This document shows positions 5,728 through 64,000 of a DNA stretch of 64,000 bases, one piece after another; the stretch's first letter is position 1; every line of letters begins with the position of its first letter. The notes under the pieces are model-generated. The model had not been told where the DNA came from, made no database searches, and saw nothing but the letters and a program-made list of their open reading frames with translations. The stretch comes from an uncultured Chloroflexia bacterium (GTDB lineage: Bacteria; Chloroflexota; Anaerolineae; CG2-30-64-16): assembly GCA_963810095.1 (NCBI GenBank), contig CAWEMM010000012.1:640001-704000 (forward strand), read 5' to 3'. Made by a program: the position numbers and the translations under genes.

Positions 5728-5863
5728 TCTTTGGTCCCCCTTCTGATACCCTGGTCACCGGGGCTGTCGGGGCCCCAAACAATCCGGGTCTGTAACCAGA
5801 ATACGGAGAACCGGTGCGCCGGGTAGCAGGCGCGACACTGCACTGTGCAGAGCCGCCTGGTTG

Positions 5864-6136
5864 CTACTTGCCGGCCGGCGCCTTCTTCCAGGTCGCGTTG
5901 GAGAGGCCATCGGGGCTGATCCTGCGAATGCCCAGTTCTACGCAGTGCAGCGACAGGTACGCGTCCACGGCGGGGTAGTAGCCCGGCACGCGCTCGCCTC
6001 CCCACAGGCCGTGCGCCAGGAGCATCGTGGCCTGGTTGGCCAGGTCCTTGGTATGAAAGGTCGGTGTTCCGATCTCGGCCACTGCTGCCTTCACTGCACG
6101 TGCGTCGACGTCTTCTGCTCTCATCACGTCACTCAT
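5864..6136 (-). CDS. Small hypothetical protein
   Basis: Protein-like composition; AAGGGA upstream of ATG; co-oriented with neighbours. Confidence 0.5.
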   Translation of the reverse strand: MSDVMRAEDVDARAVKAAVAEIGTPTFHTKDLANQATMLLAHGLWGGERVPGYYPAVDAYLSLHCVELGIRRISPDGLSNATWKKAPAGK

Positions 6137-23209: not shown

Positions 23210-24061
23210 TCAGCTTTTTAGCACTTTGTACACAGCCGACACTTCTTCCCTGCCGTACCCCGCCGCCATCGCTTTTTGAAACAGCGCCGAAGTGAACGCC
23301 GGGAACTCGGCATTAACGCCACAGTCCCGCGCGTGCTCGGCGATCAGCCGGATGCCTCCCGCCCAAAGCTCCAGCGGCGCCGAGGTCTCCTGATAATTGC
23401 CGGTGCGGATGCTCTCACACAACCACTGTTCGTATCCCTTGCCCTGCGCGCCCAGAAGTGCGCTGAACTGCTCCAGCGGGATCCCTTCGGCCTGGCAAAT
23501 CTGAATGCTGTGAAACAGGCTCAGAAACCGGCCGTAGTAGTGCATGATCATCGCCAGGTCCCACGCCGCAGCCAGCCCGATGCCCTCGCCTTTGAAGTCG
23601 AGCTTGTCGGCCAAGGCCCGCAAGGCCGGCTCGGCCTTGTGAAACACAGCCTCTTTGCCCGAGAGCAAAATGTGGGCGTCGGGTGTCCCAATCGAATCGG
23701 GCCCGCCCGTGATGGCCGCCTCGAGGTACTCTGCCCCCTGCTGCTCGGCCCACGCCTCGCCCACACGGGCCTGCTGGGGCGTGCCCGTGCTCAGTTGCAC
23801 CAGCACTTTCCCCGCGAGGCTCGCTGCTGCGTCGCTCAGGATGCGGTCTGACACGGCATAGTTGGTGACGCAAATCAGGGTGACCGGGCTGGCCGCAATC
23901 GCCGCGGAGGCATCCGGCGCAAGCTGGGCGCCCTTTGCGGCCAGCGGCCCGGCTTTCTCGGGGCTGCGGTTCCAAACGGTGAGCCCGAACCCGCGCTCCA
24001 CCAGCGCCCGGGCCAGCGCAGCGCCCATGTTTCCCAGTCCAATCATCGAGACGTCGGACAT
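23210..24061 (-). CDS. NADPH-dependent imine-reductase-like oxidoreductase (beta-HAD fold)
   Basis: IGLGNMG, VWNRSPEKA, QLSTGTP; AAWDLAM where beta-hydroxyacid dehydrogenases have a catalytic Lys. Confidence 0.75.
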   Translation of the reverse strand: MSDVSMIGLGNMGAALARALVERGFGLTVWNRSPEKAGPLAAKGAQLAPDASAAIAASPVTLICVTNYAVSDRILSDAAASLAGKVLVQLSTGTPQQARVGEAWAEQQGAEYLEAAITGGPDSIGTPDAHILLSGKEAVFHKAEPALRALADKLDFKGEGIGLAAAWDLAMIMHYYGRFLSLFHSIQICQAEGIPLEQFSALLGAQGKGYEQWLCESIRTGNYQETSAPLELWAGGIRLIAEHARDCGVNAEFPAFTSALFQKAMAAGYGREEVSAVYKVLKS

Positions 24062-48481: not shown

Positions 48482-49963
48482 CTACGCGGCCAGCGCGGGC
48501 GCAGCCGCACCCGACGACTCGGGCGCCCGCACCCCGCGCAAGGCCAGCACCGACACCAGGAACATCACGCCGAAGATCCCAAACAGCAGGACGTAACCGG
48601 CGCCGGGCACGCCCGGCAGCCGCAGCGTCACGTAATCGGCAATGGGGCCGCCGATGTACGCGCCGACCGCGCCCGCACCCGCACCCGCCAGGTTCGAAAT
48701 CCCCAGGTACTTCCCTGCCTCCGCACCGGGCACGATCCGGGTGCCCAGCGCCCAGTTGGCCGTGAAGAAGAACCCCGTCGCAATGCCGATCAACGTGCCG
48801 CCGATGTAGATCACCGTCATGTTGGGCGCGAGCAGGGCAATGAGCACCCCGAGCGCAGCGACGACCCCGCTGATCTGGAGCAGCCGCTTGTGCCCGAAGC
48901 GGTCGCCCAGGAACCCGCTCGGGATGGCCGCGATGAGGATGAAGACGCCGATTACCGTCATCAGCAGGGCCGCCGGCCCCGCCGCCTTCTCCCGCTCGAG
49001 CCCCAGCCGGCCCTGCAGGAAATAGATCGCAAAGGTCGACAGGTTGGTTGTGCCGACCAGGAACGCCAGGCGGCTGACGACCCACCAGGTGAACGACGGG
49101 TTGGCCTGCGCGGCCCGGTTGCCGATGCTGATGCGCACGCTGACCCAAACGCCGATGGCGACCGCGACCAGCATGGCCGCGATCCCGATCAGTCCCATCA
49201 GCGGCATGAGTGTTAGCGCCGAGTCGAGCGAGCCGAACGGGCCTGCCAGTTGCTTCACGGCCCAACCCAGGCCGAGGATGATGGCGGTGAAGACGGCCGT
49301 CATCGCCAGCAGCCGCAGGATCGAGCTCCAGTCAAACGGAGGCGCGTCTTCGCGGCTCAGCGGCCGCTCTTGCACCAGCATGGTCAGGAGCATGGAGACG
49401 AGCAGGATCACCGCTGCCAGCCCCAGCGCGGCCCACAGGTTGCCCCCGGCAATCAGGCGTGCGATGGTAAATGAGACCAGGATCAGGGGGATCGGGATTT
49501 CAAGCACCGCTTTGATGGCCGAGGCCCGCCCGCGCTTCTCGTCGGGCACAATGTCGGGGATGAGGCCCTGCTGTGCGCCGTGCGCGGTGTTGGCGGCGAC
49601 CGACTGCAGGATAGCGATGACGAAGAGGAACCAGAAGCCCGCCATCCCGAGCATCCCCGCCGAGACGCCGGTCAGGCCGATGAAGACGAGCATCCCCAGC
49701 GTCCCCACGAAGATGAAAGGCCGTCGCCGGCCGATCGGGGAGGTGTTCCGGTCGGAGAGCATGCCCATGACCGCCTGCCACAGCAGCGCGACCATGAGGC
49801 TCCACAGCCGCAGCTCGCCCAGGCGGGTGCCCTTGGTCGCTTCACCCACGAAGTTCTGCACCAGCAGGGGGAACACGAGACCGTTGGTCTGCGAAAGGGT
49901 CGTGAGCGCGAGGAAGAAGATGTTGATGGTGATGTAGTCGTACCAGCGCAAACGCCGCGTCAT
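48482..49963 (-). CDS. MFS transporter (GPH/SLC45-like)
   Basis: GMLSDRNTSPIGRRRPFI, LIPDIVP, GFLGDRFGHK. Confidence 0.88.
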   Translation of the reverse strand: MTRRLRWYDYITINIFFLALTTLSQTNGLVFPLLVQNFVGEATKGTRLGELRLWSLMVALLWQAVMGMLSDRNTSPIGRRRPFIFVGTLGMLVFIGLTGVSAGMLGMAGFWFLFVIAILQSVAANTAHGAQQGLIPDIVPDEKRGRASAIKAVLEIPIPLILVSFTIARLIAGGNLWAALGLAAVILLVSMLLTMLVQERPLSREDAPPFDWSSILRLLAMTAVFTAIILGLGWAVKQLAGPFGSLDSALTLMPLMGLIGIAAMLVAVAIGVWVSVRISIGNRAAQANPSFTWWVVSRLAFLVGTTNLSTFAIYFLQGRLGLEREKAAGPAALLMTVIGVFILIAAIPSGFLGDRFGHKRLLQISGVVAALGVLIALLAPNMTVIYIGGTLIGIATGFFFTANWALGTRIVPGAEAGKYLGISNLAGAGAGAVGAYIGGPIADYVTLRLPGVPGAGYVLLFGIFGVMFLVSVLALRGVRAPESSGAAAPALAA

Positions 49964-50010
49964 GGGGCCTCCTTGGCTCGAGGAGTCGGGGGGAGGGCGG
50001 ACGGGGAACG

Positions 50011-50241
50011 CTATCCCCCTCCCATCGGTGGGTAGAATTCTATCACATCCCGGTCTGTCACCGGGGGGTGATCCCACTGCGCCAGCCGGCGGTTGACCGC
50101 AATCACGGCCACTTCGGCGGGGGGCACGCCCAGTCGGGCCGCGAGGTCGCCCAGGGAGACGGGTTGCGGCTGAGCCAACTCCAGCCAGTCCCGCTTCTCC
50201 CTGTCATACCAGCTCAGGTGTCCACCCAGATGTACGCGCAT
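50011..50241 (-). CDS. moaD: MoaD/ThiS sulfur carrier
   Basis: 76 aa ubiquitin-like protein ending PPMGGG; directly after aor. Confidence 0.85.
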   Translation of the reverse strand: MRVHLGGHLSWYDREKRDWLELAQPQPVSLGDLAARLGVPPAEVAVIAVNRRLAQWDHPPVTDRDVIEFYPPMGGG

Positions 50242-50247
50242 GGATGA

Positions 50248-50342
50248 GAATGGGACGCAGATTGAACTGATCGAACTGATTTTGCCGATTTTTTAGTCGA
50301 ATCATGGGGATCAGTTGAATCAGTCTAATCAGCGTCCTATTC
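50248..50342. repeat. Family A palindromic repeat, copy 5
   Basis: gaatgggacgcagattgaactgatcgaactgat...atcagttgaatcagtctaatcagcgtcctattc; overlaps the aor stop codon. Confidence 0.88.
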
Positions 50343-52267
50343 AGTGCCTCCCGTGGCAAGCTTCTCTGCAGCCCAGCCGATGCCGAGCGCTTCCAGCCGT
50401 TCGCGTGTGGGAATGCCGGTCTCCGTGTCCCAGCCCTTGATTTCATACAGGTCGGTCAGCGCGCGCTCGAAGTCTTCGCGGGGGTATGCGACGCCGGCCA
50501 GCGCGCCCCCTTCCAGCGGCTGGAACAGCCGCTCGGGCAGCGTGTCGTCCTGCCGGGTGCGCCCCTCCCGGGCATTGAACACCCGGGCGAGGTTATTGGC
50601 GCGCTCGCCGATCCGCATCAGCTCGTCCAGCGTGACATCCCAGCCCGGTGGCCGCATGCACCGTCTCCACCACGTCGGGAATCGCGATGAACGAGCGCGG
50701 CGCGGGCCCGAAGTAGCACAGCCCGCTCGTCTTGCCCCAGTTGTTCCAGTGCTCCATCAGCGTGTAGTACTCGACCTTGCGCCGGCTGAGGTCGCGCGGG
50801 GCCAGCGGCTCGGTCACGCCCAGCGGCTCGACGCCCTTGAACTGGAGGGAGTCCGGGTTGGCCAGCACGGGGTCGTGGAATGCCGTCAGGTGCTCGGCGC
50901 CGGTCTCGGAGGTGGCATATGACAAGCCCACGCCCACCTTGCCGCGCGGCTCGTGCATGGCCAGCTCCTGCCCCTTCACCTGCATGGCAAAGAGCGGTGC
51001 GTCGCCCCCGATCGCTTCCGCGGCCCGCTTGCTCCCTTCGGCCAGCAGGTTGCCGATGCCCTCCCGGCGCCCGATCAGCTCCACGCAGCGGACCATGGCC
51101 GGGGCGTTTCCGAAGCGGAGGTCGAGGCCGCCCGTGTCCTCCAGCCCAATCAGCCCGTGCTCGAAGCATTCCATGGCGAATGCGACGGTGGCGCTGCACG
51201 AAATCGCGTCCATCGTGAAGCGGTTGCACAGCTCGTTGGCCTTCGCCACGGCCTGCAGGTCGTCGATGCCGCAGTTGGAGCCGAAGCCGGCGACCGCCTC
51301 GTACTCGGGCCCGCCGTAGTTGTCGCTCACCTGGTACGCGGTCGCCGGCTGCGCCGCCGACCTTCACTTCGCGCTTGCAGCGCACCGCGCACGCGTAGCA
51401 GCTGCGCCGGGCGCTCAGGATCTCCTTCTCGTAGGCTTCCCAGCGCAGGTTGTCGACGCCCTCGAACCCGCCGCTGCGGAAGTTGCGGGTGGGCAGGATG
51501 CCCCCGGCGTTCAGCCCCCCGGTGAGCCCCGGCGTGCCCTTCACCTGCAGGTCCCAGCTCAGCGGGTTCTCTTTGACCTCTTTGGCAAGCTTCTTGCCGA
51601 AGTTCGCGATCCACGGCCCATCTTCCGCCATGTCGACGTAGCGCGTGCTGCCGCGCACGGCGACGGCCTTCAGGTTCTTCGACCCCATGACCGCGCCCAT
51701 GCCCGTGCGCCCGTTGAAATGGCGCAGGTCGTTCGTGATCGCTGCGAACCGCACGCCCTTTTCGCCGGCCTCGCCGATCTGCAGCACGCGGACCAGCTTA
51801 TCGCCCAGCTCGCCGCGGATGGTCGCCTGGGCTTCCTCCGGCTCGCGGCCCCACAGGTGCTCGGCCGGGCGCAGCTCGACCTGGTCGTCCTTGATCCACA
51901 GGTACACCGGTCGCTCGGCCCGCCCCGTGATGACCACGGCCTCCCAGCCGGCCATCTTGAGCTCGGGGCCCCAGAACCCCCCGGCCTCCGACTCGCCGTA
52001 GCCGTCCGTCAGCGGCGACTTCCCGATGGCCGTGAAGCGGGTGGCGGTGGAAAAAGGCGCGGCGGTCAGCAGTCCGTTTGCCAGGATCAGGATGTTCTCG
52101 GGGCCCAGCGGGTCGACATGTGCGGGCAGTTCTGATAGGAGCAGGTAGGCGCCGAGCGCTTTGCCGCCCGGGTACATGCGATAAGTCTTTTCGTCGAGGG
52201 TCTGCGTAGCGATTGAGCCGCTCGCCAGGTCGACGCGTAGGATTTTTCCGGTGTAGCCAAATGGCAT
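50337..52267 (-). CDS. aor: W/Mo aldehyde:ferredoxin oxidoreductase (frameshifts near 51340 and 50655)
   Basis: GYTGKILRVDL, KSPLT, GRTGMGAVMGSKNLKAV, CYACAVRC, GPEYE, VKGQELAMHEPR, DDTLPERL. Confidence 0.93.
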
Positions 52268-52281
52268 GATTGAGCCTCGGT

Positions 52282-53080
52282 TTATGAATGGTGCGGGTCG
52301 CCGGCGACGGGCTGCCCGAACTGGCGCGCGAGGAACCGGCGGGTGGCTTCGAAAAGCTCCCCGCGTTCGCAGTCGAGCGCCACGCAGTGCGTGGACCGGT
52401 CGAGCCAGAGCAGTTCCTTATCGGTCGAGCCGACCCGGTCGTAAATCTCCTGCGGCGCGGCCGGGTCGACCGTGCGGTCCAGCCGGCCGTGGACGATGAG
52501 GATCGGCTGGCGGATCTCGGGCAGCAGCGGGCGCACGGCAGCCTGCAGGCGCAGCAGTTCCCGGATGCCCCGTGCCGGCCGCACGTCGTATCCTTGCCAA
52601 AGCGCATCGGACTCGGCGGGCGCGCCGGGCTTCGGATGCACCATCACGTCGAAGGGCGCGAGCGCATACGCGGCCCGTTCCTGGAATGAGCTGATGGCGA
52701 GCTTGAGCGCGGGCGCGTACGAGAGCACCGCCGCAATCTCCGGGTGGGTCGCCGCCAGGTGCAGCGTCAATGCCGCGCCCGTCGACTCGCCGCCAACCGC
52801 AACCCGGCCGCAGCGGGTCTTCAGTGCCACGTACGACGGCTGTGACGGCCCGCAGCCAATCGCGCCAGCCGTAGTGCCCGAGGTCTTCCGGCTCCGTGCC
52901 GTGCCCGGGCAGCAGGGGCGCAGAGACGGTGTAGCCCGCCGCGTGCAGGTTTTCCGCCAGCGGCCGCATCTCCGCAGTCGTCGCGGTCAGCCCGTGCACG
53001 AGCAGCACGCCGTCCGGCCCCCCGTCCAGGCAGAAGGCGTCGCCGGGCAGGTGGTCGTTGACAAGAAGTCTCTTCGACAT
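52282..53080 (-). CDS. Alpha/beta hydrolase, carboxylesterase/monoacylglycerol-lipase-like (frameshift near 52835)
   Basis: LLVHGLTAT, LPGHGT, nucleophile elbow GESTG, HGRLDRTV, STH. Confidence 0.85.
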
Positions 53081-53091
53081 GCAGGATCCTT

Positions 53092-53162
53092 ACCACTAAG
53101 ACACAAAGAACCGAAGACGCACGAAGTGATTGTGCAACTTCGTGTCTTGGTGTCTTTGTGGT
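53092..53162. repeat. Family B palindromic repeat
   Basis: accactaagacacaaaga...tcttggtgtctttgtggt. Confidence 0.8.
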
Positions 53163-53174
53163 TAGTCGGACGAC

Positions 53175-54092
53175 TTATGGCAGCCACTTCTTTGCCAGCC
53201 GGCATACCATCGTGTAGGCCGGGTCGTAGACGTTGCCCAGGTCGTAGTCCACGCACTGGCCCAGGAGGATGCTCGCCTCCTGCATGGTGAGGCCGTAGTC
53301 GGCGGTCAGCCAGCGGAGCATTTCGGTCGTGGCGTGCTGCAGGGCCTGGTCGAGCGGCCGGGCGTTGCCAACCGTGAAGATGTGCTCCGCATTCTCGCCC
53401 CTGGGCCACCGAACCGGCGCGTGCGCCTCCTGGCCCTTGATCACCCGGAGGCGGAACTCGACCTCGAACGAAATCTCGATCCCCGTTCCCACCACCTCGC
53501 CGTCGCCCTGCACCGCGTGCCCGTCGCCGATGAAGAAAAGCGCGCCCGGCACCGCAACGGGGAAGTATGCGGTCACGCCCGCACAGAAGCCCCGGTAGTC
53601 CATGTTGCCGCCGTGCGGTCCGGCCGTGGACGTGGAGATGGCCTGGCCGCCGGCGGGCGCGACGCCGAAGCAGCCCACCATCGGCGCAAGCGGCAGGGCC
53701 AGCCGGCCGAGCTTGGGGAACGGCTCCTGCGGCGTGGCACAGCCGGCCGCTGCGTCGACGTCCCAGATCAGCGTTTCGGCCTCGGGCAGCGAGGCGACAA
53801 AGCTCGGATCGACCACGCCGGGCGCGACGACGTCACGGGTGAAGCCGGTCGGCCGGTTGGGCGCCAGGCGGATGAGATCGACGGCCAGGGTATCGCCGGG
53901 CTCGGCCGGCTCGACATAAAAGGGACCCGTCTGCGCGTTCGGGCGGCCGCCAGCAAGCTGGCCGTGGTGGTCCCAGCCGTGCGCGTCGATGGTCGTGGTC
54001 ACGACCGTATCGCCGTCGGCGACCGTGAGAACGGGCGGATGCGAGCCGAGCGTGTTGTAATAGCGGGTTGGTGCGAAGTGATGAGTCGTCAT
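53175..54092 (-). CDS. Acetamidase/formamidase family protein
   Basis: TGPFYV..AEPGD, HGGNMD, GDGHAVQGDGEV.GTGIE. Confidence 0.9.
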   Translation of the reverse strand: MTTHHFAPTRYYNTLGSHPPVLTVADGDTVVTTTIDAHGWDHHGQLAGGRPNAQTGPFYVEPAEPGDTLAVDLIRLAPNRPTGFTRDVVAPGVVDPSFVASLPEAETLIWDVDAAAGCATPQEPFPKLGRLALPLAPMVGCFGVAPAGGQAISTSTAGPHGGNMDYRGFCAGVTAYFPVAVPGALFFIGDGHAVQGDGEVVGTGIEISFEVEFRLRVIKGQEAHAPVRWPRGENAEHIFTVGNARPLDQALQHATTEMLRWLTADYGLTMQEASILLGQCVDYDLGNVYDPAYTMVCRLAKKWLP

Positions 54093-54096
54093 AACA

Positions 54097-55379
54097 CTAG
54101 CGTAACACCGGGATTGTGGCGTTGGCAAATGGCATGACGCCAATGCGCGCGCCGGATGGCAGGCGGGCCAGCGCCTCGTCCACGGCCTGCTGGAGCGAAG
54201 GGGCGGGGTTCAGCAGCAGGCGCTCGGCCAGGCTGCGGTCCATGTCTGACACGAACGTAAGGCGGACGCGGGCCGCGTCGCGTGCGATCTGCCACGCCTT
54301 GTGCGGGCCGATCCGGTAACCCTCCGCCGCATAGCGGTCGAGCACCTGCTCGTGCGTCGTGAAGCCGCCGTCGAGCATCCAGCGCTCGTAGGCTGCGCTG
54401 CCCGTGCCTTCCCCGCAGGCCGCGGCCAGGATCACTGCGCCGCTCAGAGCGGGAACCAGCCGGGTCACCAGGGTGGCGTGCGCGAGGGCCTTTTGCGCCT
54501 GGTACAGGTTGATGTCCTTCGGATGGCCGCCGGGCGACACGATGACCAGGTCGAACGGGCGGCTGACTTCCACCGCGTAGATGGCGCGCAGCAGGGGGAT
54601 GCCCGCCTGCATCACGTCGACCGGGCGCCCGGCCAGGACGTGCGCGATCTGCTTGTGGTCATTCAGGATCGCGTTGAGCGCGTAGTCCACCCCGATCAGC
54701 CGCCCGATCTCTTCGACATCCTGCCGGCAGGGGTTGTCCGCGTAGGAGTTGATCTCGGCGCCGGCCGCGGTCATCATGGCATGGTTCGTGTTGATGGTGG
54801 CCTTCGCCGTCAGGCCCACCGCCGCGCTCTTGACCCCGCCCGAGAAGCCCATGAACTGGTGCGGCTCGATGTTCCCCACGACCACCCGCAGGTCCGCCTC
54901 CCACCAGCGCCGGTTGACGCTGACGGGCGTGCCGCGGGCCGTCTCGCCGAGGTAGATCAGCTCGCCGTCCGCATTGCAGTCGTGGCTGTACACGGGGTAG
55001 CGGGCGAGGATCTCGGCCGGCAGGATGGCCGGGAATTCCTCGGGCGGCATGGGGGCGTGGGTGCCGGTCGCCACCAGCAGCGTGATGTTCTCGGGGAGGA
55101 ACCCGAGCCCTTCGAGCCGGGCGAGCAAGGGCGGCAGAAGGTAGCGGTGGGGGACGGGCCGGGTCTTGTCGTTAACCGCGACGACAGCCCTCCGCCCTCG
55201 GTTCGTGGGCAGGGGCGCGGCGTCCAGGGCCGCCTCGACTGCCGCCAACGGATCGGGCGAGGGCGCGGCCTCGCGGGGCGCGAGCAACTCCACCCGGCGT
55301 CCAGCGCGGCGGGCAGGTCGAACTCGACAAATCCTTTCCCGTAGGGAAGCTGGTAGCGGGTCAACGGCGCCTCATGCAA
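54097..55379 (-). CDS. larA: LarA-family nickel-pincer-nucleotide hydroxyacid racemase (frameshift near 55295)
   Basis: LPYG, NDKTRP, ATGTH, IEPHQFMGFSGGVKS, NH, GGHPKDINLYQAQKA. Confidence 0.88.
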
Positions 55380-56485
55380 ACAGCCGGATCAGCAGCAGGC
55401 TAAACAGCGCCAGGCAGCCGCCCACGGCAAAGCCGAGCGCGAGCGGCTTGAGCCCGGTGCGCCGGATGCTCGCGGCGTTGGTGCTCAGCCCGATGGCCGA
55501 GAGGGCGAGCAGGATGCAGAGCTTCGTCACCTCGTCCAGCAGCTTCAGCACGTTGGCGGCGGCTACCAGGCTGCCCGGGTCGTTCACGTTGACCGGTGTG
55601 AAGCCGAGCGCGTTGCCGAGCGACCGGACCAGGCTCATGCCGACGAAGCCGAGCACGAACCAAGGCACGATCTTGCCGATCGACAGCTTGACCGACGCAT
55701 CCCGCTTCTGCTGCGCCCGGGCGTACACCAGCCCGATGCCGAGGATCAGCGGGGCCATGAGCGTGTTGCGCACGAGCTTGACCACCGTCGCAACGTCGCG
55801 TGCCGCGTCGCTGAACGCCGCGCCCGCGGCCACCACCTGCGACGTGTCGAGGATCGCAGTGCCGGCCCACAGCCCGAAGATCCGGTCGCTCATGCCCACC
55901 AGGTAGCCGAACGTGGGGTAGAGCAGCACGGCCAGCGTGCCGAAGAAGGTGATGGTGGCGACCGCATAACTCACATCCTCGTCCTCGGCCTCGATGACCG
56001 GGGCCGTCGCAATGATGGCGGAGTTGCCGCAGATGGCGGTGCCGACGCCGATCAGCGCGGCCAAGCCGGGGGCGGATACGGAGGGCGCGCCCCAGCAGGT
56101 AGGCGAGCGACAGGGCAAAAGCCACGCACGCGAGCACCAGCAGCAGCGCAGACCCGCCGATGTTGATCACGTCCTGGAAGCTGAGCCGCACGCCCAGCAG
56201 GATAATGCCAAAGCGCAGGATGCGGGTCAGAGCGAACTTGATGCCCGGCTCGAAGCGGGCGGAAAACCCGATCGCGTTGCGGACGAAGAACCCGAGCAGC
56301 ACCGCGATGAAGACTTCGCTCACCGCCCGAGCGATCTCGGGCGAGGGGATCAGCCCGTGCAGGTAGCGCGCGATGAGCGCCACGGCCAGCACCAGGAACA
56401 GGCCCGGCAGGGCAGGGCGCAGCTCCGCGCCGATCTTGCGGAGCTCGGCAACAAGTGGATTGACGTGCGTTGTAGGGGCGATCAT
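55372..56485 (-). CDS. YeiH / putative sulfate(sulfite) exporter family protein (frameshift near 56075)
   Basis: LRFGIILLG, GTAICGNSAI, GTAILDTSQVVAAG, KLVRN, PWFVLGF. Confidence 0.88.
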
Positions 56486-56496
56486 GGCAGCTTCCC

Positions 56497-56561
56497 GACC
56501 TTCGGGGTTTCGACCGCGAGCAACCTGACCGGGTCAGGCGCTCGGTGAAACCCCGAAGGTC
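56497..56561. repeat. REP-like palindrome
   Basis: gaccttcggggtttc...gaaaccccgaaggtc with an internal cctgac/gtcagg hairpin. Confidence 0.7.
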
Positions 56562-56576
56562 TCGGATTGGAGCGGG

Positions 56577-58086
56577 TTACGCGCTCTCGTAGAGCTTCGT
56601 CAGGACGAACTCGTCGTGGCGCAGGGCCTCGGCGGCGGTGAAGCGGCCGTTGATGGTGTGTTCCAGCACCTCCATCGCCTTGTCGGCGCCCTCGTCCAGG
56701 TTGATCTCGATGCGGAGGAGCCCGGTCAGGTCCACGTCGATGTGCTCGGACATCGTCGCGACGGTCAGCGGGTTCGCACACAGCTTGATGACGGGGATGA
56801 TCGGGTTGCCGATGATGTTGCCCTGCCCCGTGGGGAAGTAATGGACGACCGACCCGGCTGCCGCGCACAGGGTGACCATTTCGGCCGCGGCCGACGACGA
56901 ATCCATGAAGTGCAGGCCCGGGCCCTGGGGCTCCACGGCCTTGTCGAGCACGCCCACGACGGTGCAGCGCCCCATCTTCTGGATGTTGCCCATGGCCTTC
57001 TCTTCGATGGTGGTCAGGCCGCCGCGGATGTTGCCTTCGGTCGGCTGCGAGCCCAGCAGGTCGACGCCCTTGCTCTTCACGAGCGCCTGGTAGTCGTTGA
57101 AGAACTGCATGAACCCGTCGGCCACTTCCTGCGTCGCGCACTGGTTGGCGATGATGTCCTCGCCGCCCGTGACCTCGGTCGTCTCGCCGAAGATGAGGGT
57201 TGCCCCAGCGTCCGCCAGCCGCTCGAACACCCGGCCGACCGTGGGGTTCGCCGCCAGGCCCGACGTGGTGTCCGACTCGCCGCACTTGGTGCTCATGCAC
57301 AGCTGGTCGACGGTGAACGGCTCGCGCTGCAGCTCGGTGGCGTACTGCACGAACTCCATGGCCTTGCGCGCCGCCATCTCGATGGTCTTCAGGTCGCCGT
57401 AGCGCTCGATGCTGAACCCGGCGACCGGCTTGCCCGTCTCGGCGATCGCATCGACCACCCGCTGCGTCCACTTCGGCTCGATGCCGATGACGATGGCCGC
57501 GGCCACGTTCGGGTTGCGCCCGGTGCCCGCCAGCGTGCGGAAGGTCAGCTCGAGGTCCTCGCCGAACTGCAGCCGGCCGTATGGGTGCGGCAGGGCCATC
57601 GTGCCCTTGATCAGGCTGGCAACGCCGTTGGCGGCGGCATTGGAGATGTCGTCGATCGGCAGGATGATGACGTGGTTGCGGACGCCGAAGCGGCCGTCCG
57701 GGCGCTTGTAGCCCAGCAGCTTCATTTCCTCCGGCTTCTTGCCGCCCAGGGCCAGCCGCTCGGTGTGCTTCTGGACGATTTCCGGCGCGGGCGCCTCTTC
57801 CAGGCTCCACGCGCATCGTCTTCAGGTTTTGCGTGTGGACGTGGCCGCCGCAGGGGATGGCCGCAGTCGTCTGGCCGATCGTGCGCCCGTACTTGAGCAG
57901 CTTGTGCCCCGCCGGCATGTCGCGCATCGCAACCTTGTGGCCCAAGGGCACGTCGTTCACGACCTTGAGGCTGCCGTGCTCCTGCCCCTCCAGCGTGACG
58001 ACGCCCACTTCCTCGCCCGCGTGCAGGTCGCGCACCGCCACGCCGACATCGTCGATGAGTTCGTGAATCAGGATTCCGTGTGCCAT
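56577..58086 (-). CDS. suyAB: (2R)-sulfolactate sulfo-lyase SuyA (SAF domain) plus SuyB, probably one fused ORF with a 1-nt error near 57810
   Basis: SAF domain DVPLGHKVA..KYG..HVHTQN; SuyB signatures LPIDDISNAA, HPYGRLQFGEDLEL, KCGESDTTSG, SQPTEGNIRGGLTTIEEKA, MDSSSAAAE, EFVLTKLYESA. Confidence 0.9.
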
Positions 58087-58113
58087 GATGAGTGCCTTTC
58101 GTAAACGGGATTG

Positions 58114-58206
58114 GAATGGGACTCAGTTAACTGATCAAACTGATCGACCTGATCTTTCTTGAATATCATGAAGATCAGTCCGATCCGTTCGATCTGTGTC
58201 CCATTC
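58114..58206. repeat. Family A palindromic repeat, copy 6
   Basis: gaatgggactcag...gatctgtgtcccattc. Confidence 0.85.
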
Positions 58207-58214
58207 TGCGTTCT

Positions 58215-59431
58215 CTACAAGTCGATCCCGTTTTCGCGGAGCAGCTCGTCGATGAGCACGGGCTGCCCGGTCTTGACCGATTTTTCGGCCGCCGCGCCGA
58301 CGACGATGGACCAGAAGCCCTCGGCGGCTGTGGCCGCTGTCCTTGGCGCACCGTCGATGTTGTCCACAAAGCTGACGTGCTCGAAGTAGGTCGCGCCGTG
58401 GTGGCCGCTCGCCTGGATGAAGCCGGGTAGCACGGCGTGCCGATGCGGGTGGGCTTGCGGTCGCCGCACTTGATCTCGATGGTCGTGTCGGGCTGGCCCG
58501 CCGGCAGGAAGTCCTCGTTCTCCGACACCTTCAGCCGGCCGTCGTCGCCGCAGAGCACCATCTCCTCGTAGAACATGGGCGAGAACATGCAGAGGTTGAA
58601 GGTGGCCCGCACGCCGTTGGCGTAGTTGACGATGACGAACGGCGTTGTCGATGATGTCCGACTTTTCGCCCTCGTACTCGAAGTCGAGGAAGTTGACCGC
58701 CGCGCTGCCGCTCGCATACACGCTGACCGGCCGGGCGCCGGCGAACAGGTTCATCAGGTCGAAGTAATGGCAGCACTTCTCGACCAGCGTGCCGCCCGAG
58801 TACTTCGAGAACTTGTTCCACTGCTTCACCTTGTCGAGGAAGGGGAAGCGGTGCTCGAGGATGCTGATCGTCTTGATGTCGCCGATGGTCTTGCGCTCCA
58901 GCGCCTCGTGGATGGCCTCCACGTAGATGGGCTTGAAGCGGTACTGCAGCCCGATCTGGAAGACGGCGGGGTGCCGCTGCGCCATCTGCATGATGGCATA
59001 GGCGTCGCAGACCGTCGTCGCCATCGGCTTCTCGAGCAGGATGTGCTTGCCCGACGCGGCGGCCACCCGCACCACGTCGAGATGCGTGAAGTTCGGCGTG
59101 CAGATGATCAGGCCGTCGACCGCCGGGTCGTTGCACGCCGCTTCGAGCGAGTCGTACACGACCAGCTTTTCCCGCCCGGGCGGAACTGGGCGTGCATCCC
59201 CTGGGCGCCGGCAATGCTCAGCGGGTTCGGGTCGTACACGCCGTGGATGACCGCGCGGCCCTCCATGCCCGTCACCCGGATGTGCTCCTGCCCGTTGACG
59301 CCCGTTCCGATCACGTTGAAGCGGTAGCGCTCCTCTGCCGGTGCGAAGAGGTAGCGGTCTTCGGCCGGGATGTACGCGAAGACGGGGCTCCGCGCAAAGA
59401 CCTGGTTGCGGAATTCTTTACCGATTGGCAT
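58215..59431 (-). CDS. Gfo/Idh/MocA-fold protein, probable NAD+-dependent sulfoquinovosidase (GH188, SqgA-like); several frameshifts
   Basis: IGTGVNG, LEKP, GLQYRF, HRFPFLDKVKQWNKF..SGGTLVEKCCHYFDL, GHHGAT; located in a sulfoglycolysis operon. Confidence 0.75.
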
Positions 59432-59446
59432 AGCGTTATCCTCGAC

Positions 59447-60111
59447 TTATTCGTACGGCGTCTTGTCCCAGAAGCTGCAGAACCGCTTCAGCCCCTCGTC
59501 CGTCCACGGGTGCTGGACCATGCCCTTGTACACCGCGAGGCCCGCAGGTCACGATGTCCGCCCCGGCCACGGCCGAGTCCACGATCTGCCGGCCGTTGCG
59601 CACCGCACTGACGATGATCTCGGTCGGGAACTCGTAGTTGTCGCGCATCATCACGATTTCCTGGATGAAGCGCACGGTTTCTTCGCCGGTCTCTTCCTTC
59701 CAGCCGATGAAGGGCGAGACGAACGTCGCGCCGAGCCGCATGGCCTGCAGCGCCTGGCTGCCCGAGAAGACGAGGGTCAGGTTGACGCGGATGTTCTTCG
59801 GCCCGCAGGCCGCGCAGCGCCCGGAACCCGGGCTCGGTGGCGGGCAGCTTGATGACGAAGTTGGGGCTGAGCGCGGCCAGCTTCTTGCCCTCGGCCACCA
59901 TCTCGCGCCAGTCGTCGTAGTGCGGGTTGACCTCGACCGACACCGGCAGGTCTGTCCCCTTGAAGATCTCCGCGATCTCCTTGATCACGACCATGAACGG
60001 CTTGCCCGAAGCCTGCACGTGCCGGGGGTTCGTCGTCACGCCGTCGATCCCCACCATCTCCAGCGCGTACGTGATCTCGTCCGTGATCGCGCTGTCCAGG
60101 AAGAACTTCAT
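59447..60111 (-). CDS. sftT: Sulfofructose transaldolase (frameshifts near 59800 and 59540)
   Basis: MKFFLDSA, DGVTTNPRH, Schiff-base VIKLP, SPFIGWKE, VRNGRQI. Arg in TNPRH, Trp in GW and Arg in RNG match my recollection of the sulfonate pocket in Bacillus SftT/SqvA. Confidence 0.85.
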
Positions 60112-60248
60112 CCTTGCCTCCGAATGTGTGTCGTCGCCCGCGGGACCAATGTCGAGGCTACCACAAGGTGCCCGATGACATGGCTTCACAAAGCTCTGCA
60201 ACTATCGCCTGGCTTCCGTTTGTCTGTGTCTTTGTGTTAAAGTCATGT

Positions 60249-61197
60249 CTACCTGCCGCCGAAGCCCGTCGTTGCGACGCCCTGCACGAAGTAGCGCTGG
60301 GCGAAGACGAACACGATCAGGATCGGGATGAGCACCGCCGTCGACGCCGCGAACAGCAGCTCCCAGTTCCCCGTCATCTGCACGTCGTTGAGCGCGCGCA
60401 AGCCGAGCGCCAGCGTCCAGTTTTGCCGGCCGTTGATGTAGATCAGCGGCTGCAGGAAGTCGTTGTAGCTCTGCAGGAACGCGAACACCGCCACCGTCGC
60501 GATGACCGGCTTGGACAGCGGCAGGATGATGTTGAAGAGGATGCGGACGCGGCTTGCGCCGTCGACCAGCGCGGCTTCCTCCAGCTCCATGGGGATGGTC
60601 TTGAAGAACTGCCGCATCAGGAACACGTAGAGCGGCGCCAGCGCCAGCCAGAACGGCACGGTCAGCGGCAGGTAGTTGCGCGGCAGGTCGAACAGCGTGC
60701 CCGGCAGGTCGAGCACGTTGCCCGGCTTCGTCCAGCCAAGCGTCCTGAACTCGATGAACATCGGGATCATCGTGATGATCTCGGGCAGCATCATCGTGCC
60801 GAGCAGCATGCCGAAGAAGAAGTCGCGGCCGGGCCAGCGCAGCCGGGCGAACGAGTAGGCCACCAGCGACGACGACAGCACCACGCCCAGCACGGTCAGG
60901 AGGGAGATCTTGAAGGTGTTGACCGCAAACGTGGCGAAGGGCAGCAGCTGCCATCGCGTCGGCGTAGTTGCGCCACTGGGGCACGGCCGGGATCCACACG
61001 ATCGGGTTGGCGAAGATCTCGGGCTGGCTCTTCAGCGACGAAGAGACCATCCACAGCGTGGGGCCCAGGAACGTGAGCAGGATCAGCGTCATCAGGACCT
61101 GCAGGCCGATGATGCCCAGCCGGTCCATCGTCTTGCGCCGCGATTTGGCGGCCGCGTATTTTTCGGTCTCGACCGTTGGCGTGGCAGGGATGTCCAT
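60249..61197 (-). CDS. Carbohydrate ABC permease (MalG-like), frameshifted
   Basis: AYSFARLRWPGR, EAA motif ELEEAALVDGA, LPLSKP. Confidence 0.9.
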
Positions 61198-61206
61198 GGG
61201 GCGCTC

Positions 61207-62118
61207 CTACGACTCGTAATACACCCAGCGGCTCGACACGTAGAACTGCGACGATGGTCAGGCCGATGACGATGATGAAGAGCTCCCACGCCAGCGCGGA
61301 AGCGTAGCCCATGTTGAAGAACTGGAAACCGTTCCGGTAGATGTTGAGCACGACGAACAGCGTCGAGTTTTCCGGCCCGCCGTCGGTCATGATCAGCGCG
61401 GGGACGAACGTCTGGAACGAGTTGATGATCGCGATGATCATGTTGTAAAAGATCAGTGGCGTCATCAGCGGGACGGTGATCTTGAGGATCGAGGTGAACT
61501 TGCTCGCGCCGTCGATCTGCGCGGCTTCCTGCAGCTGGACCGGGATGTTGCCGAGGCCGGCGATAAAGATCACCATCTGGCGGCCGATCATCCAGAACGA
61601 CATGAAAGATGAAGGCGGGCTTGGCCAGCTCGGGCTTGAGCAGCCACGGCTGTGCCGGGATGCCCACCCAGCCGAGGATGGTGTTCAGGATGCCGAAATC
61701 GGGGTGCAGCACCCGCTGCCACACGACGGCCGTCGCGACGACAGGGATGATGATGGGCAGGTAAAAGCCCGCCCGGTACATCGCCCGGAACTTGAGCGGC
61801 TGGGTCAGCGCCAGTGCCAGCGAGAAGGAGATGACAAGCTGGAACGGCACGGCAAAGAGGGTGTAAATCGCGCTGTTCACCAGCGCCTTGCGCGCCAGCT
61901 CGTCGGTGAACACCCGCGTGATATTCGCCAGCCCGGCGAACAGCCGGCGGCGAGAGCAGGTCCCATTTCTGAAACATCAGGTAAATGGAGTAGAGCATGG
62001 GAAATGCGACGAAGGCGAAAAAGCCGATCAAGAACGGCGCAGCAAACAGGTAGCCTTGCAGCCATTCGCGGCGCTGAAATGACGACACGCGGCGCCTGGG
62101 TTGCGTTACAGCGGCCAT
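61207..62118 (-). CDS. Carbohydrate ABC permease (MalF-like), frameshifted
   Basis: GYLFAAPF, QEAAQIDGA, ITVPLMTP, MGYASALAW. Confidence 0.9.
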
Positions 62119-62136
62119 GCCGTACCTCCCGAAGCA

Positions 62137-62254
62137 GAATTGGACTCAGATTGAACTGATCTGACTGATTTGCCTGATCCTTCACCCTGGGCTGGCAGGG
62201 TAATCACGAACAAGATCAGGTGATCAGTCCGATCAGTCCAATCTGCGTTCTATT
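62137..62254. repeat. Family A palindromic repeat, copy 7
   Basis: gaattggactcagattgaactgatctgactgat...atcagtccgatcagtccaatctgcgttctatt, between the binding-protein and permease genes. Confidence 0.85.
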
Positions 62255-62257
62255 GCA

Positions 62258-63674
62258 CTATGCGCCGAGCGCGGCGTTCAGCTTCTCGTCGACCTGCGGG
62301 AAGACCTCGGCCGGCTTGGCGCTGCCGTTGTTGATCTTGTCCCATGCGGTCGGCTTCACGACCTCGGACCACATCTTCGAGCGCGGCACGTTGGCGCTGA
62401 CCACGTCGATCTGGCCTTCCTTGAACGCATCGAGGAACGCCTGGCCGTTCTCGATCTGGTACAGCTCCTTGGTGCGCGGCACCCACCAGCTTTGCGCCAG
62501 GTCGAGGTTCGACGGGATGCGGCCGGTGATGGTGGAGTACTGCTTGTTGCCTGCTTCGCTCACCAGGAACGCGGCGAACGCCCAGGCGGCCTCGGCCAGG
62601 TCGGTCTTCGGTGACCGCGACGCCTTCGCCCCAGCCGCGATGCGGCCGGCCCGAAACGTTGGGGGTCTTGGGCATGAGCACCACGTCGAAGGGCACTTCC
62701 TTCTTCTGCTCGCGCAGCTTCGGGCTGTTGAGCTGGGGCAGGAACCACGGCCCTTCGTACTTCATGGCGCACTTGCCGGTGTTGATCGTGTTCGCGCCGG
62801 ACGTGTCGGCCGGGCTCGGCGCGACCTTCCAGGTGTGGGGCATGTCGTAGGAGGTCGTGGTGATGCGGTCCACGATCTCGGGCTGGTTGAACATGGCCTT
62901 CTTCGGGTCGATGATCGTGTCGAACTCGCGCTTGCCCGTGCCGACGATCCAGCCGATGTCGCGGTACCAGTTGCCGTTGACCTGGTAGCCGAACAGGCCC
63001 TTGCCCGCGTCGGTCAGCTTCTTGGCCGTCTCGACGAACTCGTCGAACGTCCAGTCGGTCTTCGGGTAGGCCACGCCGGCGTCGTCGAAGATCTTCTTGG
63101 CGTAGAACATGATCATCGTCGCGGCCTGCAGCGGGATGAGGAAGGTCTTGCCGTTGCGCTTCGTGCTCTGCTCGACGCTGGTGTAGCCCGAGGGGTAGAC
63201 GTTGGTCACCTTGTCGCGGGTGATCCAGTCGTCGACCGGCTGGAGCAGGCCCTTGTCCGCATAGGCTTGCCACTCCCAGCCCTGGAAGGAGGCCAGGTTG
63301 GGCGGCGTGCCGCCGGCGAACATGGTCTGCAGCTTGGTGTAGTAGTTGGCGTTAGGGTCGGCAACCGGCGTGATGTTCACCACGTTCCCGGTCAGCTTGG
63401 TGTACTCGGGCCCCAGCACTTCCCAGGCCGGGACCGTCGGTCGTGTCGCCCCAGGCGAGGAACTCGATCGGGGCGAGCGCTGCCCTTCGCCGCAGGTGCG
63501 GCAGTCGGGGCGGCTGCGGCCGGCGCGGTGGTCGCCGCGGGCGCAGCCGTGGGGGCGCTGCGGCCGGTGCGTGGCCTGCTGGCCGCCGCATGCGGAGAGC
63601 AATGCGGCCGCCGCCAGGCCCCCGCCGCCCAGCTTCAGGAACTCGCGGCGGGACAACTTGGTCTGCTTGGACAT
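62258..63674 (-). CDS. Sugar ABC substrate-binding lipoprotein, Tat-exported (frameshifted)
   Basis: SRREFLK twin-arginine motif, LLSAC lipobox, KLQTMFAGGTPP, DWTFDEF, GPWF. Confidence 0.88.
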
Positions 63675-63748
63675 GTGCCTTTCCCTCCCTGGGTGGTGTT
63701 GAGATCGCGTCGTGGGGCCCGTGCGCAGCACGCCGCCTCATGACAGGA

Positions 63749-63799
63749 GTTGACTTACGACAGGCGTTGACCTACGACAGCTGTTGACTTACGACAGGC
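63749..63799. repeat. Three 17-bp tandem units spanning the isomerase stop codon
   Basis: gttgacttacgacaggc / gttgacctacgacagct / gttgacttacgacaggc. Confidence 0.8.
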
Positions 63800-64000
63800 G
63801 CAGCACGGGCAGGTCGAGCAGCCGCGCCAGCGCCAGCAGGGCGTCCAGGTGGTCGCCGTAGGTCAGGGAGATGTGGTGGTCCAGCCCTTCGGTCATGATG
63901 GTGTCGAAGCACCTCTTGGGCCGGGCGGTCGAACCGGATGCACGCCGGACGTGCCCGTGTAGCTCATCGGCGCGTGCTGCATTTCGCCCGCCGCCACGAC
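63789..64000 (-). CDS. L-fucose/L-arabinose isomerase family protein, C-terminus only; probable sulfoquinovose isomerase
   Basis: Manual translation (not in the ORF track): GEMQHAPMSYTGTSGV...TIMTEGLDHHISLTYGDHLDALLALARLLDLPVLRLS*; upstream of the transaldolase operon. Confidence 0.65.
   Translation of the reverse strand, partial: RGGGRNAARADELHGHVRRASGSTARPKRCFDTIMTEGLDHHISLTYGDHLDALLALARLLDLPVLRLS

Follow-up and report, generated by a model that had tools for sequence, protein, structure and literature searches.

A LarA homologue encoded behind suyAB in an uncultured Chloroflexia bacterium as a probable nickel-pincer 3-sulfolactate racemase

This study concerns a 64,000-nucleotide stretch of DNA from an uncultured Chloroflexia bacterium (GCA_963810095.1, contig CAWEMM010000012.1, positions 640,001 to 704,000), called the window below, and within it a gene for a homologue of the lactate racemase LarA that follows the sulfo-lyase genes suyAB and an exporter gene. 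We predict that the encoded protein is a nickel-pincer racemase of (S)- and (R)-3-sulfolactate that feeds the (R)-specific SuyAB, a reading to which we assign a probability of roughly 60% and in which the substrate and the direction of flux are read from gene context. The first-pass annotation had proposed such a one-enzyme sulfolactate racemase, and this appears to be the explanation best supported by the residues, the larBCE genes, the adjacency to SuyB in two phyla and the sulfoquinovose clusters described here. Since the LarA gene stands right behind suyAB both here and in many other bacteria, its product probably inverts sulfolactate to the enantiomer that SuyAB accepts. What is new is the proposed substrate and role; the LarAH5 family to which the protein belongs is itself known.

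Sulfoquinovose is among the most abundant organosulfur compounds, and its C3 products carry a stereocentre that is not directly usable by the known sulfo-lyase. In the route that we propose, an ATP-binding cassette (ABC) transporter would import sulfoquinovose or its glycoside, and a fucose-isomerase-like enzyme together with a sulfofructose transaldolase would produce (S)-sulfolactaldehyde. This would be oxidised to (S)-sulfolactate, here probably by an aldehyde:ferredoxin oxidoreductase (AFOR) and in relatives by an aldehyde dehydrogenase. The LarA homologue would then interconvert (S)- and (R)-sulfolactate, (R)-specific SuyAB would convert the (R) form into pyruvate and sulfite, and a YeiH/SuyZ-type exporter would remove the sulfite. 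By analogy with solved LarA enzymes, the cofactor, nickel-pincer nucleotide (NPN), would be tethered to Lys155 with its nickel held by His171, and His79 and His145 would take turns as base and acid. The C2 hydride would pass to the cofactor, giving bound sulfopyruvate, and would be returned to the opposite face while Arg45, Tyr264, Gln265 and Lys268 keep the carboxylate and hydroxyl in place. For the CH2-SO3- arm, this would be done by the invariant Gln146-Phe147 and His331-Lys332.

The catalytic and cofactor motifs listed in the first-pass annotation (D.TR, GTH, EPH, GGxK, NH and YQxxK, with HQF at the place of HFF in L. plantarum LarA) are all present, and alignment to the L. plantarum enzyme (structure 5huq) gives each its counterpart. 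D42, T44 and R45 correspond to D72, T74 and R75; H79 of GTH to the first catalytic histidine, H108 (kept in 68 of 69 relatives); H145 of EPH to the second, H174 (kept in 69 of 69); K155 of GGVK to the cofactor tether, K184; H171 of NH to the nickel ligand, H200; and Y264-Q265-x-x-K268 to Y294, Q295 and K298. The roles of Lys184 as tether and His200 as nickel ligand, and that of Arg75, are described in excerpts of PMC11770544. The two residues after the second catalytic histidine touch the C-alpha substituent in LarA enzymes (excerpts of PMC11851776); they are Gln-Phe in all 69 aligned relatives (H145-Q146-F147 in the window protein). The GHK motif (G329-x-H331-K332) likewise keeps its His-Lys pair in 68 of 68 relatives. 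The 398-residue body of the protein carries Pfam domains Lar_N (6.2e-49) and LarA_C (1.3e-11) and no others. An AlphaFold2 model (predicted local distance difference test, pLDDT, 88.5; predicted template-modelling score, pTM, 0.87) matched LarA-family structures in Foldseek with template-modelling (TM) scores of 0.91 (9eid), 0.87 (5huq) and 0.74 (Mar2 apoprotein, 7s91). The two-domain LarA fold and the two domains place the protein in the LarA superfamily.

Within the superfamily, the protein reaches 469 bits with the NCBIfam model NF052595 ('nickel-dependent malate racemase, LarAH5 family'), whose cut-off is 462, even though its N-terminus is missing, and nine of nine tested relatives, with and without SuyB neighbours, score 471.6-553.2 bits. 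It also has the marks of LarAH5, namely the GHK motif and a Gln at the position of the group 6 Phe, where group 5 has Gln or His (excerpts of PMC7583248). By profile score and motifs, the window protein belongs to the known, named LarAH5/Mar1 'malate racemase' family, which the first-pass annotation overlooked. The closest solved structure by sequence is the malate racemase Mar2 (3.6e-69). With L-malate, Mar1 (LarAH5, from Desulfitobacterium hafniense) has a KM of 55 mM and a kcat/KM of 0.39 s-1 mM-1, and Mar2 a KM of 0.38 mM and a kcat/KM of 185. According to the excerpts of that study (Desguin et al. 2020; PMC7583248), its authors doubt malate as the native substrate of Mar1, propose tartrate or 2-hydroxysuccinamate, and found that genomic context matched the activity for Mar2 and GntE2 only. 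Sulfolactate is said to serve D. hafniense DCB-2 as terminal electron acceptor in the consulted part of a review (PMC12890257), and this is the same species as the source of Mar1.

Open reading frames and a Pfam search place the LarA-family gene at 54097-55379 on the minus strand. The first-pass annotation had its family and place right, but overlooked the minus strand and a one-base frameshift and probably set the start 15 nucleotides off. The interval is 1283 nucleotides long, no multiple of three, and therefore cannot be a single reading frame. Its parts are as follows.
54097 to 55293, minus strand: main frame of the LarA homologue, opening at GTG 55293 and ending with the stop at 54097 (398 amino acids plus stop), with all catalytic and cofactor residues
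55293 to 55295, minus strand: frameshift site, with one base fewer than the homologues
55296 to 55379, minus strand: second frame, holding the N-terminal ~23-28 codons and opening at TTG 55379
The first ~28 residues (..TRYQLPYGKGFVEFDLPAALDAG) lie in a frame separate from the body, and in an alignment this frame matches, column by column, the N-termini of full-length homologues (417-424 amino acids; P0003, P0008 and others). Based on this alignment, the true start is likely TTG 55364 (MTRYQ..., as in P0003 and P0008), which lies 8 nucleotides past the stop of the exporter gene and 15 nucleotides inside the earlier start at TTG 55379; the latter overlaps the end of the exporter gene. The start at 55364 would yield a 422-residue protein, like the nearest relative, P0003.

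The SuyB-LarA neighbourhood was followed in two sets of loci. The genome set comprises 72 LarA loci from a one-genome-per-species collection, 53 from Chloroflexota and 19 from Spirochaetota (phylum by record title). A SuyB orthologue (58-97% identity) is present in 39 of these, always upstream of LarA, on the same strand and 78-2462 nucleotides away; it occurs in 18 of the 19 Spirochaetota and 21 of the 53 Chloroflexota loci. Five further loci have a GD_AH paralogue (37% identity) there instead, and 11 have none with a flank too short to judge. The metagenome set comprises 80 LarA loci from an alignment-based contig scan, some of which probably duplicate genome loci (e.g. L108 and L021, whose contigs are one base apart in length). 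They are again 52-65% identical, so the comparison stops short of the Firmicutes-type LarAH5. A SuyB orthologue was found in 32 of them, a paralogue in five and none with a short flank in 33. The GC3-based gene caller mis-stranded some genes in these loci (the transaldolase and exporter of L014), and L047 was scanned only downstream of LarA. The GD_AH paralogue, 35-38% identical to SuyB, sits just upstream of LarA (L028, L031, L052, L058 and L066; L114, L138, L146, L148 and L149), often with transaldolase and aldehyde dehydrogenase genes nearby, and could be either a dehydratase of another kind or a sulfo-lyase that has diverged.

A quick tree search, supported by SH-like approximate likelihood ratio tests (SH-aLRT) only, was run on 69 relatives, the query and four paralogues from the same genome, with three short rows left out. 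The relatives form one tight family with the paralogues on long branches, and SuyB-linked members are spread across the whole tree, 18 of the 19 Spirochaetota rows among them. Where SuyB is missing, sulfoglycolytic genes may still flank LarA. The G015 string reads transaldolase, LarA, pyridoxal phosphate (PLP) enzyme and YeiH exporter, and in G002 a transaldolase is followed directly by LarA; L042 has an isomerase-like gene, an aldehyde dehydrogenase and LarA, and L017 an AFOR, a ThiS-like gene, LarA and an MFS transporter. From these contexts, the link to sulfoglycolysis outlasts the link to SuyB. The G015 locus (L180, G015:C566, 2255-6606) encodes a sulfofructose transaldolase, LarA, a PALP-family PLP enzyme and the YeiH exporter, with no SuyB on the contig; its PALP-family enzyme may carry out the desulfonation instead, in the manner of CuyA.

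Neighbouring genes in the 39 SuyB-linked loci were counted from tblastn matches of at least 120 residues with an E-value no higher than 1e-15. These gave transaldolase (28 loci), a GH31 glycosidase (17), aldehyde dehydrogenase (16), a fucose-isomerase-like gene (12) and AFOR (nine). The pieces of the window's transaldolase are 58-76% identical to the L044 protein, for which BmSF-TAL, a sulfofructose transaldolase (8bc3), is the best match among solved structures (1.3e-78, 267 bits versus 162 for an ordinary transaldolase). The GH31 protein of L053 matches the sulfoquinovosidase YihQ best (5aed, 4.7e-191). This gene content and these matches mark the clusters as genuine sulfoquinovose clusters.

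The sulfolactate that comes from sulfoquinovose is assumed to be the (S) enantiomer, and SuyAB to be (R)-specific from work on the proteobacterial enzyme (excerpts of PMC11193023). In Chromohalobacter salexigens, SlcC and an (R)-sulfolactate dehydrogenase link the one to the other (Denger and Cook 2010, as related in excerpts of PMC11193023 and PMC12421959), in agreement with the earlier statement that described bacteria cross this stereocentre with two dehydrogenases. The accompanying claim, that the window holds no SlcC/ComC-type dehydrogenases, stands for the ComC family, as no Ldh_2 gene is present in the window, but has to be amended for one imine-reductase-like NAD_binding_2 gene 30 kb off. 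This sole NAD_binding_2 gene of the window (23210-24061, minus strand) has a reductive-aminase-like C-terminal domain and lies amid MoxR/DUF58/BatA-VWA genes, and is therefore unlikely to be an SlcC equivalent. Across the 72 LarA loci of the genome set, Ldh_2 was found in none and a D-2-hydroxyacid dehydrogenase in one. Eight LarA-less suyAB loci of Chloroflexota were fetched and seven scanned, the low-GC L097 being left out. Ldh_2 lies directly beside suyB in two of the seven (L092 and L096), a D-2-hydroxyacid dehydrogenase in two (L094 and L096, the latter having both types) and a short-chain dehydrogenase in one (L093), and three have no candidate dehydrogenase beside suyB. The pattern fits one racemase displacing the dehydrogenase pair, though it is no clean either/or. 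A strict rule of 'LarA or ComC' was discarded on account of those three loci and of four of the 80 metagenome LarA loci that have Ldh_2.

The first-pass annotation had pointed to larB, larC and larE as genes to be confirmed elsewhere in the genome, and the three lie side by side on contig C2.
C2:113532-114305: larE (TIGR00268, 319 bits)
C2:114715-115119: larB (AIRC, 62.7 bits, one internal TAG)
C2:115139-116260: larC (Ni_insertion, 474.6 bits)
No purE was seen in this 88.5%-complete bin, the larB gene being its only AIRC-domain match. Four further Lar_N loci are present in the genome (G000; C12:86055-86669, C12:27583-28119, C12:584913-585519 and C14:91762-92244): one of the true lactate-racemase type (L001, 486.9 bits versus a cut-off of 460), one Mar2-like (L002, 448.7 bits to NF052593, cut-off 500), one broken and one distant. 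These paralogues and the LarA homologue presumably share the single larE-larB-larC cluster.

On the minus strand the gene belongs to a string that reads ROK, fucose-isomerase-like gene, binding protein, two permeases, transaldolase, GFO/IDH/MocA oxidoreductase, suyA-suyB, YeiH exporter and LarA homologue, followed by an FmdA/AmdA gene, an alpha/beta hydrolase, AFOR and an MFS transporter. The position after suyAB and the exporter, as first described, is borne out by these coordinates.
63795 to 64000, minus strand: 3' end of the fucose-isomerase-like gene, found in four pieces by tblastn with the L098 protein, with weak Fucose_iso_C matches
60249 to 63737, minus strand: sugar ABC transporter (permeases 60249-62127; binding protein with twin-arginine translocation (TAT) signal 62250-63737), with several frame changes
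59450 to 60111, minus strand: sulfofructose-transaldolase-like gene in three frames, with TAL_FSA on two pieces
58215 to 59431, minus strand: GFO/IDH/MocA oxidoreductase, with one frame change
56577 to 58086, minus strand: suyA-suyB (SAF-like SuyA part 58086-57811, SuyB part 57809-56577), with a frame change at ~57810
55372 to 56485, minus strand: putative sulfite/sulfate exporter of the YeiH/SuyZ type in two frames, with a break near 56060-56070, PF03601 on both pieces, and TIGR00698
53175 to 54092, minus strand: FmdA/AmdA-family gene (Pfam 4.8e-25), intact, 75% identical to the L014 protein
50358 to 52267, minus strand: AFOR in three frames, with AFOR_N and AFOR_C, 78-83% identical to the L014 protein
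48482 to 50077, minus strand: MFS transporter (MFS_1) in one frame, 79% identical to the L014 protein, at the end of the gene string
The fucose-isomerase-like gene, a candidate sulfoquinovose isomerase, extends past the window to ~65163 in window-equivalent coordinates, with the ROK gene beyond.

The SuyB part has the domains GD_AH_second and GD_AH_C and is the sole GD_AH_C gene in the source genome. NCBIfam has no SuyB-specific model, and the protein falls far below the cut-off of the galactarate dehydratase model; orthology was therefore established through annotated suy loci. It is 66.8% identical to suyB of the Cupriavidus pinatubonensis hpsN-hpsO-suyAB cluster and 58.5% identical to suyB of the Paracoccus versutus suyA-suyB-'putative sulfate exporter' cluster. 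By domains, orthology to suy loci and the SuyZ/YeiH exporter that follows, the neighbouring genes are identified as those of a SuyAB sulfo-lyase. The window's suyA-suyB is probably one fused gene of 502 amino acids, as in L014 (7188-8693), to whose protein the SuyA and SuyB pieces are 89% and 96% identical. Many database relatives of SuyB are 497-504 amino acids long, some with an SAF domain, while Spirochaetota and other Chloroflexota keep two genes.

Several other genes of the string recur in related loci. In several Chloroflexota loci (L014:5892-7106, L044:1166-2398 and L063:5008-6219), a GFO/IDH/MocA gene separates suyAB from the sulfofructose transaldolase gene, accompanied in L063 by a xylose-isomerase-like TIM-barrel gene; we know of no GFO/IDH/MocA step in the described sulfo-transaldolase pathway. 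L014 also has a PemK/MazF-type toxin gene (5529-5885) between transaldolase and GFO gene, which is absent there in the window. The FmdA/AmdA (acetamidase/formamidase) gene starts 4 nucleotides past the LarA stop and recurs in five loci of the genome set of 72 (L013, L014, L027, L032 and L033), which all belong to the sub-branch that contains the query in the tree; to our knowledge, the family has no role in sulfonate metabolism. AFOR is found near the LarA homologue in nine of the 39 SuyB-linked loci and four of the 33 others, whether paralogue-bearing or SuyB-less, with examples in L014 (12805-14787), L017 (7685-9577) and L044 (4462-6309), sometimes with a ferredoxin or ThiS-like gene. One database relative is a LarA-ThiS fusion (P0024, 583 amino acids). 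In anaerobes, the oxidation of sulfolactaldehyde to sulfolactate may fall to AFOR rather than to SlaB-type dehydrogenases.

The frameshift in the LarA gene is one of many. Comparison with intact proteins of related loci revealed at least 17 frame changes from ~48.5 kb to ~66 kb, affecting 11 of the 13 genes there: at least one in the ROK gene, three in the isomerase-like gene, one in the binding protein, three and one in the permeases, two each in the transaldolase and AFOR, and one each in the GFO oxidoreductase, suyAB, exporter and LarA genes; the amidase-like and MFS genes have none. The same comparison found no in-frame stops in the interrupted pieces of the string, and these keep high amino-acid identity to relatives (SuyB 96%, permease pieces up to 94%), a pattern consistent with indels introduced in error by long-read assembly. 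The source genome is a 16-contig bin of 6.13 Mb that is 88.5% complete, and breaks are also present in genes elsewhere in it. At about one frame change per kb of coding sequence from 48500 to 64000 and on to ~66000 (contig L012), gene calls and pseudogene counts for this genome are unreliable until it is polished. Among public runs, none shares more than 0.14 of the stretch's sampled words and no RNA run was listed for it; contigs for comparison came from four runs of other samples. A short-read contig of 151 letters from run X2 matches 55295-55432 with one difference, and its other 13 letters equal window positions 55283-55294 with one letter added between 55294 and 55295; on the minus strand this addition restores the LarA frame (..D-A-A-V-E-L-L..). 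Contigs from runs X6 and X1 have one base fewer at 56065, within the interval where the exporter's two frames join, and at 56548, respectively. As single, low-depth contigs from other samples, these are hints and not proof. A programmed frameshift was rejected, because a single frame encodes the homologues and most genes nearby have scattered breaks as well.

Based on the foreign contig and the pattern of breaks, the LarA frameshift is probably an assembly indel error. That a true one-base deletion instead inactivated the gene in a decaying operon is, in our judgement, very unlikely: such a pseudogene would agree with the frameshift in the assembled sequence and with the 11 interrupted genes, but it is hard to reconcile with so many frame changes free of in-frame stops in pieces highly identical to relatives, with single-base indels in near-identical short-read contigs exactly at the LarA and exporter breaks and at 56548, or with broken genes elsewhere in the genome. 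We regard it as unlikely that the protein is a racemase of D- and L-malate, as its family name says, with the adjacency to suyAB incidental or serving metabolism of the released pyruvate. The NF052595 scores of the protein and all nine relatives, a GHK motif typical of malate racemases, the closeness to Mar2 and the in vitro activity of Mar1 all point that way. Against it stand the poor KM of Mar1 and the doubts of its own authors (PMC7583248, in excerpt), the lack of malate-handling genes in any annotated locus, the recurrence of sulfoquinovose and sulfolactate genes as neighbours and the separate Mar2-like paralogue (L002) in the genome. An enzyme of broad range, or one for another operon-linked 2-hydroxyacid such as an amide or derivative handled by the FmdA/AmdA protein, tartrate or 2-hydroxysuccinamate, seems to us equally improbable. 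The FmdA/AmdA gene close behind LarA, the suggestions made for Mar1 in the available part of PMC7583248 and the family members in SuyB-less genomes speak for it; the amidase-like gene, however, does not reach beyond a small sub-branch, whereas neighbouring SuyB, transaldolase and sulfoquinovosidase genes are found across the whole tree and in two phyla, and sulfolactate is the only 2-hydroxyacid expected in a route from sulfo-transaldolase to SuyAB.

A number of observations weigh against a sulfolactate racemase all the same. No SuyB gene was found in 17 of the 72 genome loci, each with an upstream flank of 3 kb or more, or in 10 of the 80 metagenome loci, where the flank was likewise full, and several SuyB-less LarA loci lie amid unrelated genes. 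In a sample of 401 genomes of the phylum (orthologue threshold at least 60% identity), 17 have a SuyB orthologue, five have a LarA orthologue and two have both, namely the source genome of the window and G175, in which the two genes lie next to each other; the SuyB orthologue is absent from the other three LarA holders (G338, G015 and G002), whose genomes are 99, 92 and 93% complete. SuyB is found elsewhere in one of five further genomes with a SuyB-less LarA locus; two others have only paralogues of 34-38% identity, and the remaining two have none. All five are metagenome bins for which no completeness is given. The (2R) specificity of SuyAB in the window's clade is assumed from the proteobacterial enzyme. 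Two Ldh_2 genes elsewhere in the source genome leave room for a dehydrogenase route, and Ldh_2 lies near LarA in the four metagenome loci mentioned above. The above-cut-off placement in a 'malate racemase' model and the racemisation of malate by Mar1 in vitro (PMC7583248, in excerpt) also belong here, as do the frameshift of the gene as assembled, where the two frames meet at 55293-55295, and the evidence for its being an error, which consists of one low-depth foreign contig and the break pattern in neighbours. Sulfite, which SuyAB releases, is a competitive inhibitor of L. plantarum LarA, as well as a protectant of its cofactor (excerpts of PMC11851776). Finally, no LarA homologue has been reported to act on sulfolactate in the literature searched. 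This agrees with the earlier remark that sulfolactate was not known to be an established substrate of the superfamily, given full-text searches that left most subscription journals and supplements outside. Beside SuyAB, these searches for a sulfolactate racemase turned up only the SlcC/ComC-type dehydrogenase pair and cysteate racemase; the string 'sulfo' is absent from a 2024 survey of LarA substrates, and a January 2026 review of sulfoquinovose catabolism (PMC12890257) has neither 'racem' nor 'nickel' in its text.

Comparison with known systems helps to place the sulfolactate racemase that we propose. Mar1 is of the same NCBI family, with the GHK motif and the Gln after the second catalytic histidine, and its NPN chemistry is expected to be alike; it was assayed on malate only among dicarboxylates and is poor with it, whereas the context of the window gene points to 3-sulfolactate. 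Mar2 (LarAH6; 6d6z, 7s91) resembles the window protein in the His-Lys pair of the G-x-H-K-A helix and in all its catalytic residues, but has H-Y-K after the second catalytic histidine where the window family has H-Q-F; the window protein scores 369.7 against the LarAH6 cut-off of 500, and the context and kinetics of Mar2 fit malate. L. plantarum LarA has in common with the window protein the fold, the His pair, the Lys tether, the Ni-binding His and the cofactor genes larB, larC and larE, but at ~25% identity it differs in having HFF for HQF and the W358/T359 region for His-Lys. The SlcC/ComC pair of C. salexigens would catalyse the same net reaction, feeding (R)-sulfolactate to SuyAB, and in LarA-less Chloroflexota loci dehydrogenases stand beside suyB in the position held elsewhere by LarA. 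That pair consists of two NAD(P)-dependent enzymes with free sulfopyruvate between them, whereas our proposal has one enzyme, a bound intermediate and no net cofactor turnover; with Lar_N and LarA_C only, the window protein is of neither the SlcC (beta-hydroxyacid dehydrogenase) nor the ComC (Ldh_2) family. CuyB with the D-cysteate sulfo-lyase CuyA (excerpts of PMC11193023) likewise pairs a racemase with a stereospecific C3-sulfonate sulfo-lyase, but acts on an amino acid and belongs to another enzyme family with another cofactor, where the window substrate would be a hydroxyacid.

We judge the chances to be evenly balanced that the whole LarAH5/Mar1 group natively racemises 3-sulfolactate and would be the first nickel-pincer enzyme on an organosulfonate, a redox-neutral replacement of SlcC/ComC by one enzyme. 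If our prediction is true, sulfonates would become a new substrate class for the LarA superfamily, the open question of the native substrate of Mar1/LarAH5 would be answered, and the NCBI name 'malate racemase, LarAH5 family' would misassign the role of many Chloroflexota and Spirochaetota genes. The exporter gene between suyAB and larA would serve to keep sulfite, a known cofactor inhibitor, low. A single nickel-pincer racemase would close the stereochemical gap for anaerobes without use of NAD(P) and would explain how sulfoglycolysis and desulfonation can take place within one organism, so that anaerobic Chloroflexota, Spirochaetota and probably Desulfitobacterium would mineralise the sulfosugar fully in one cell.

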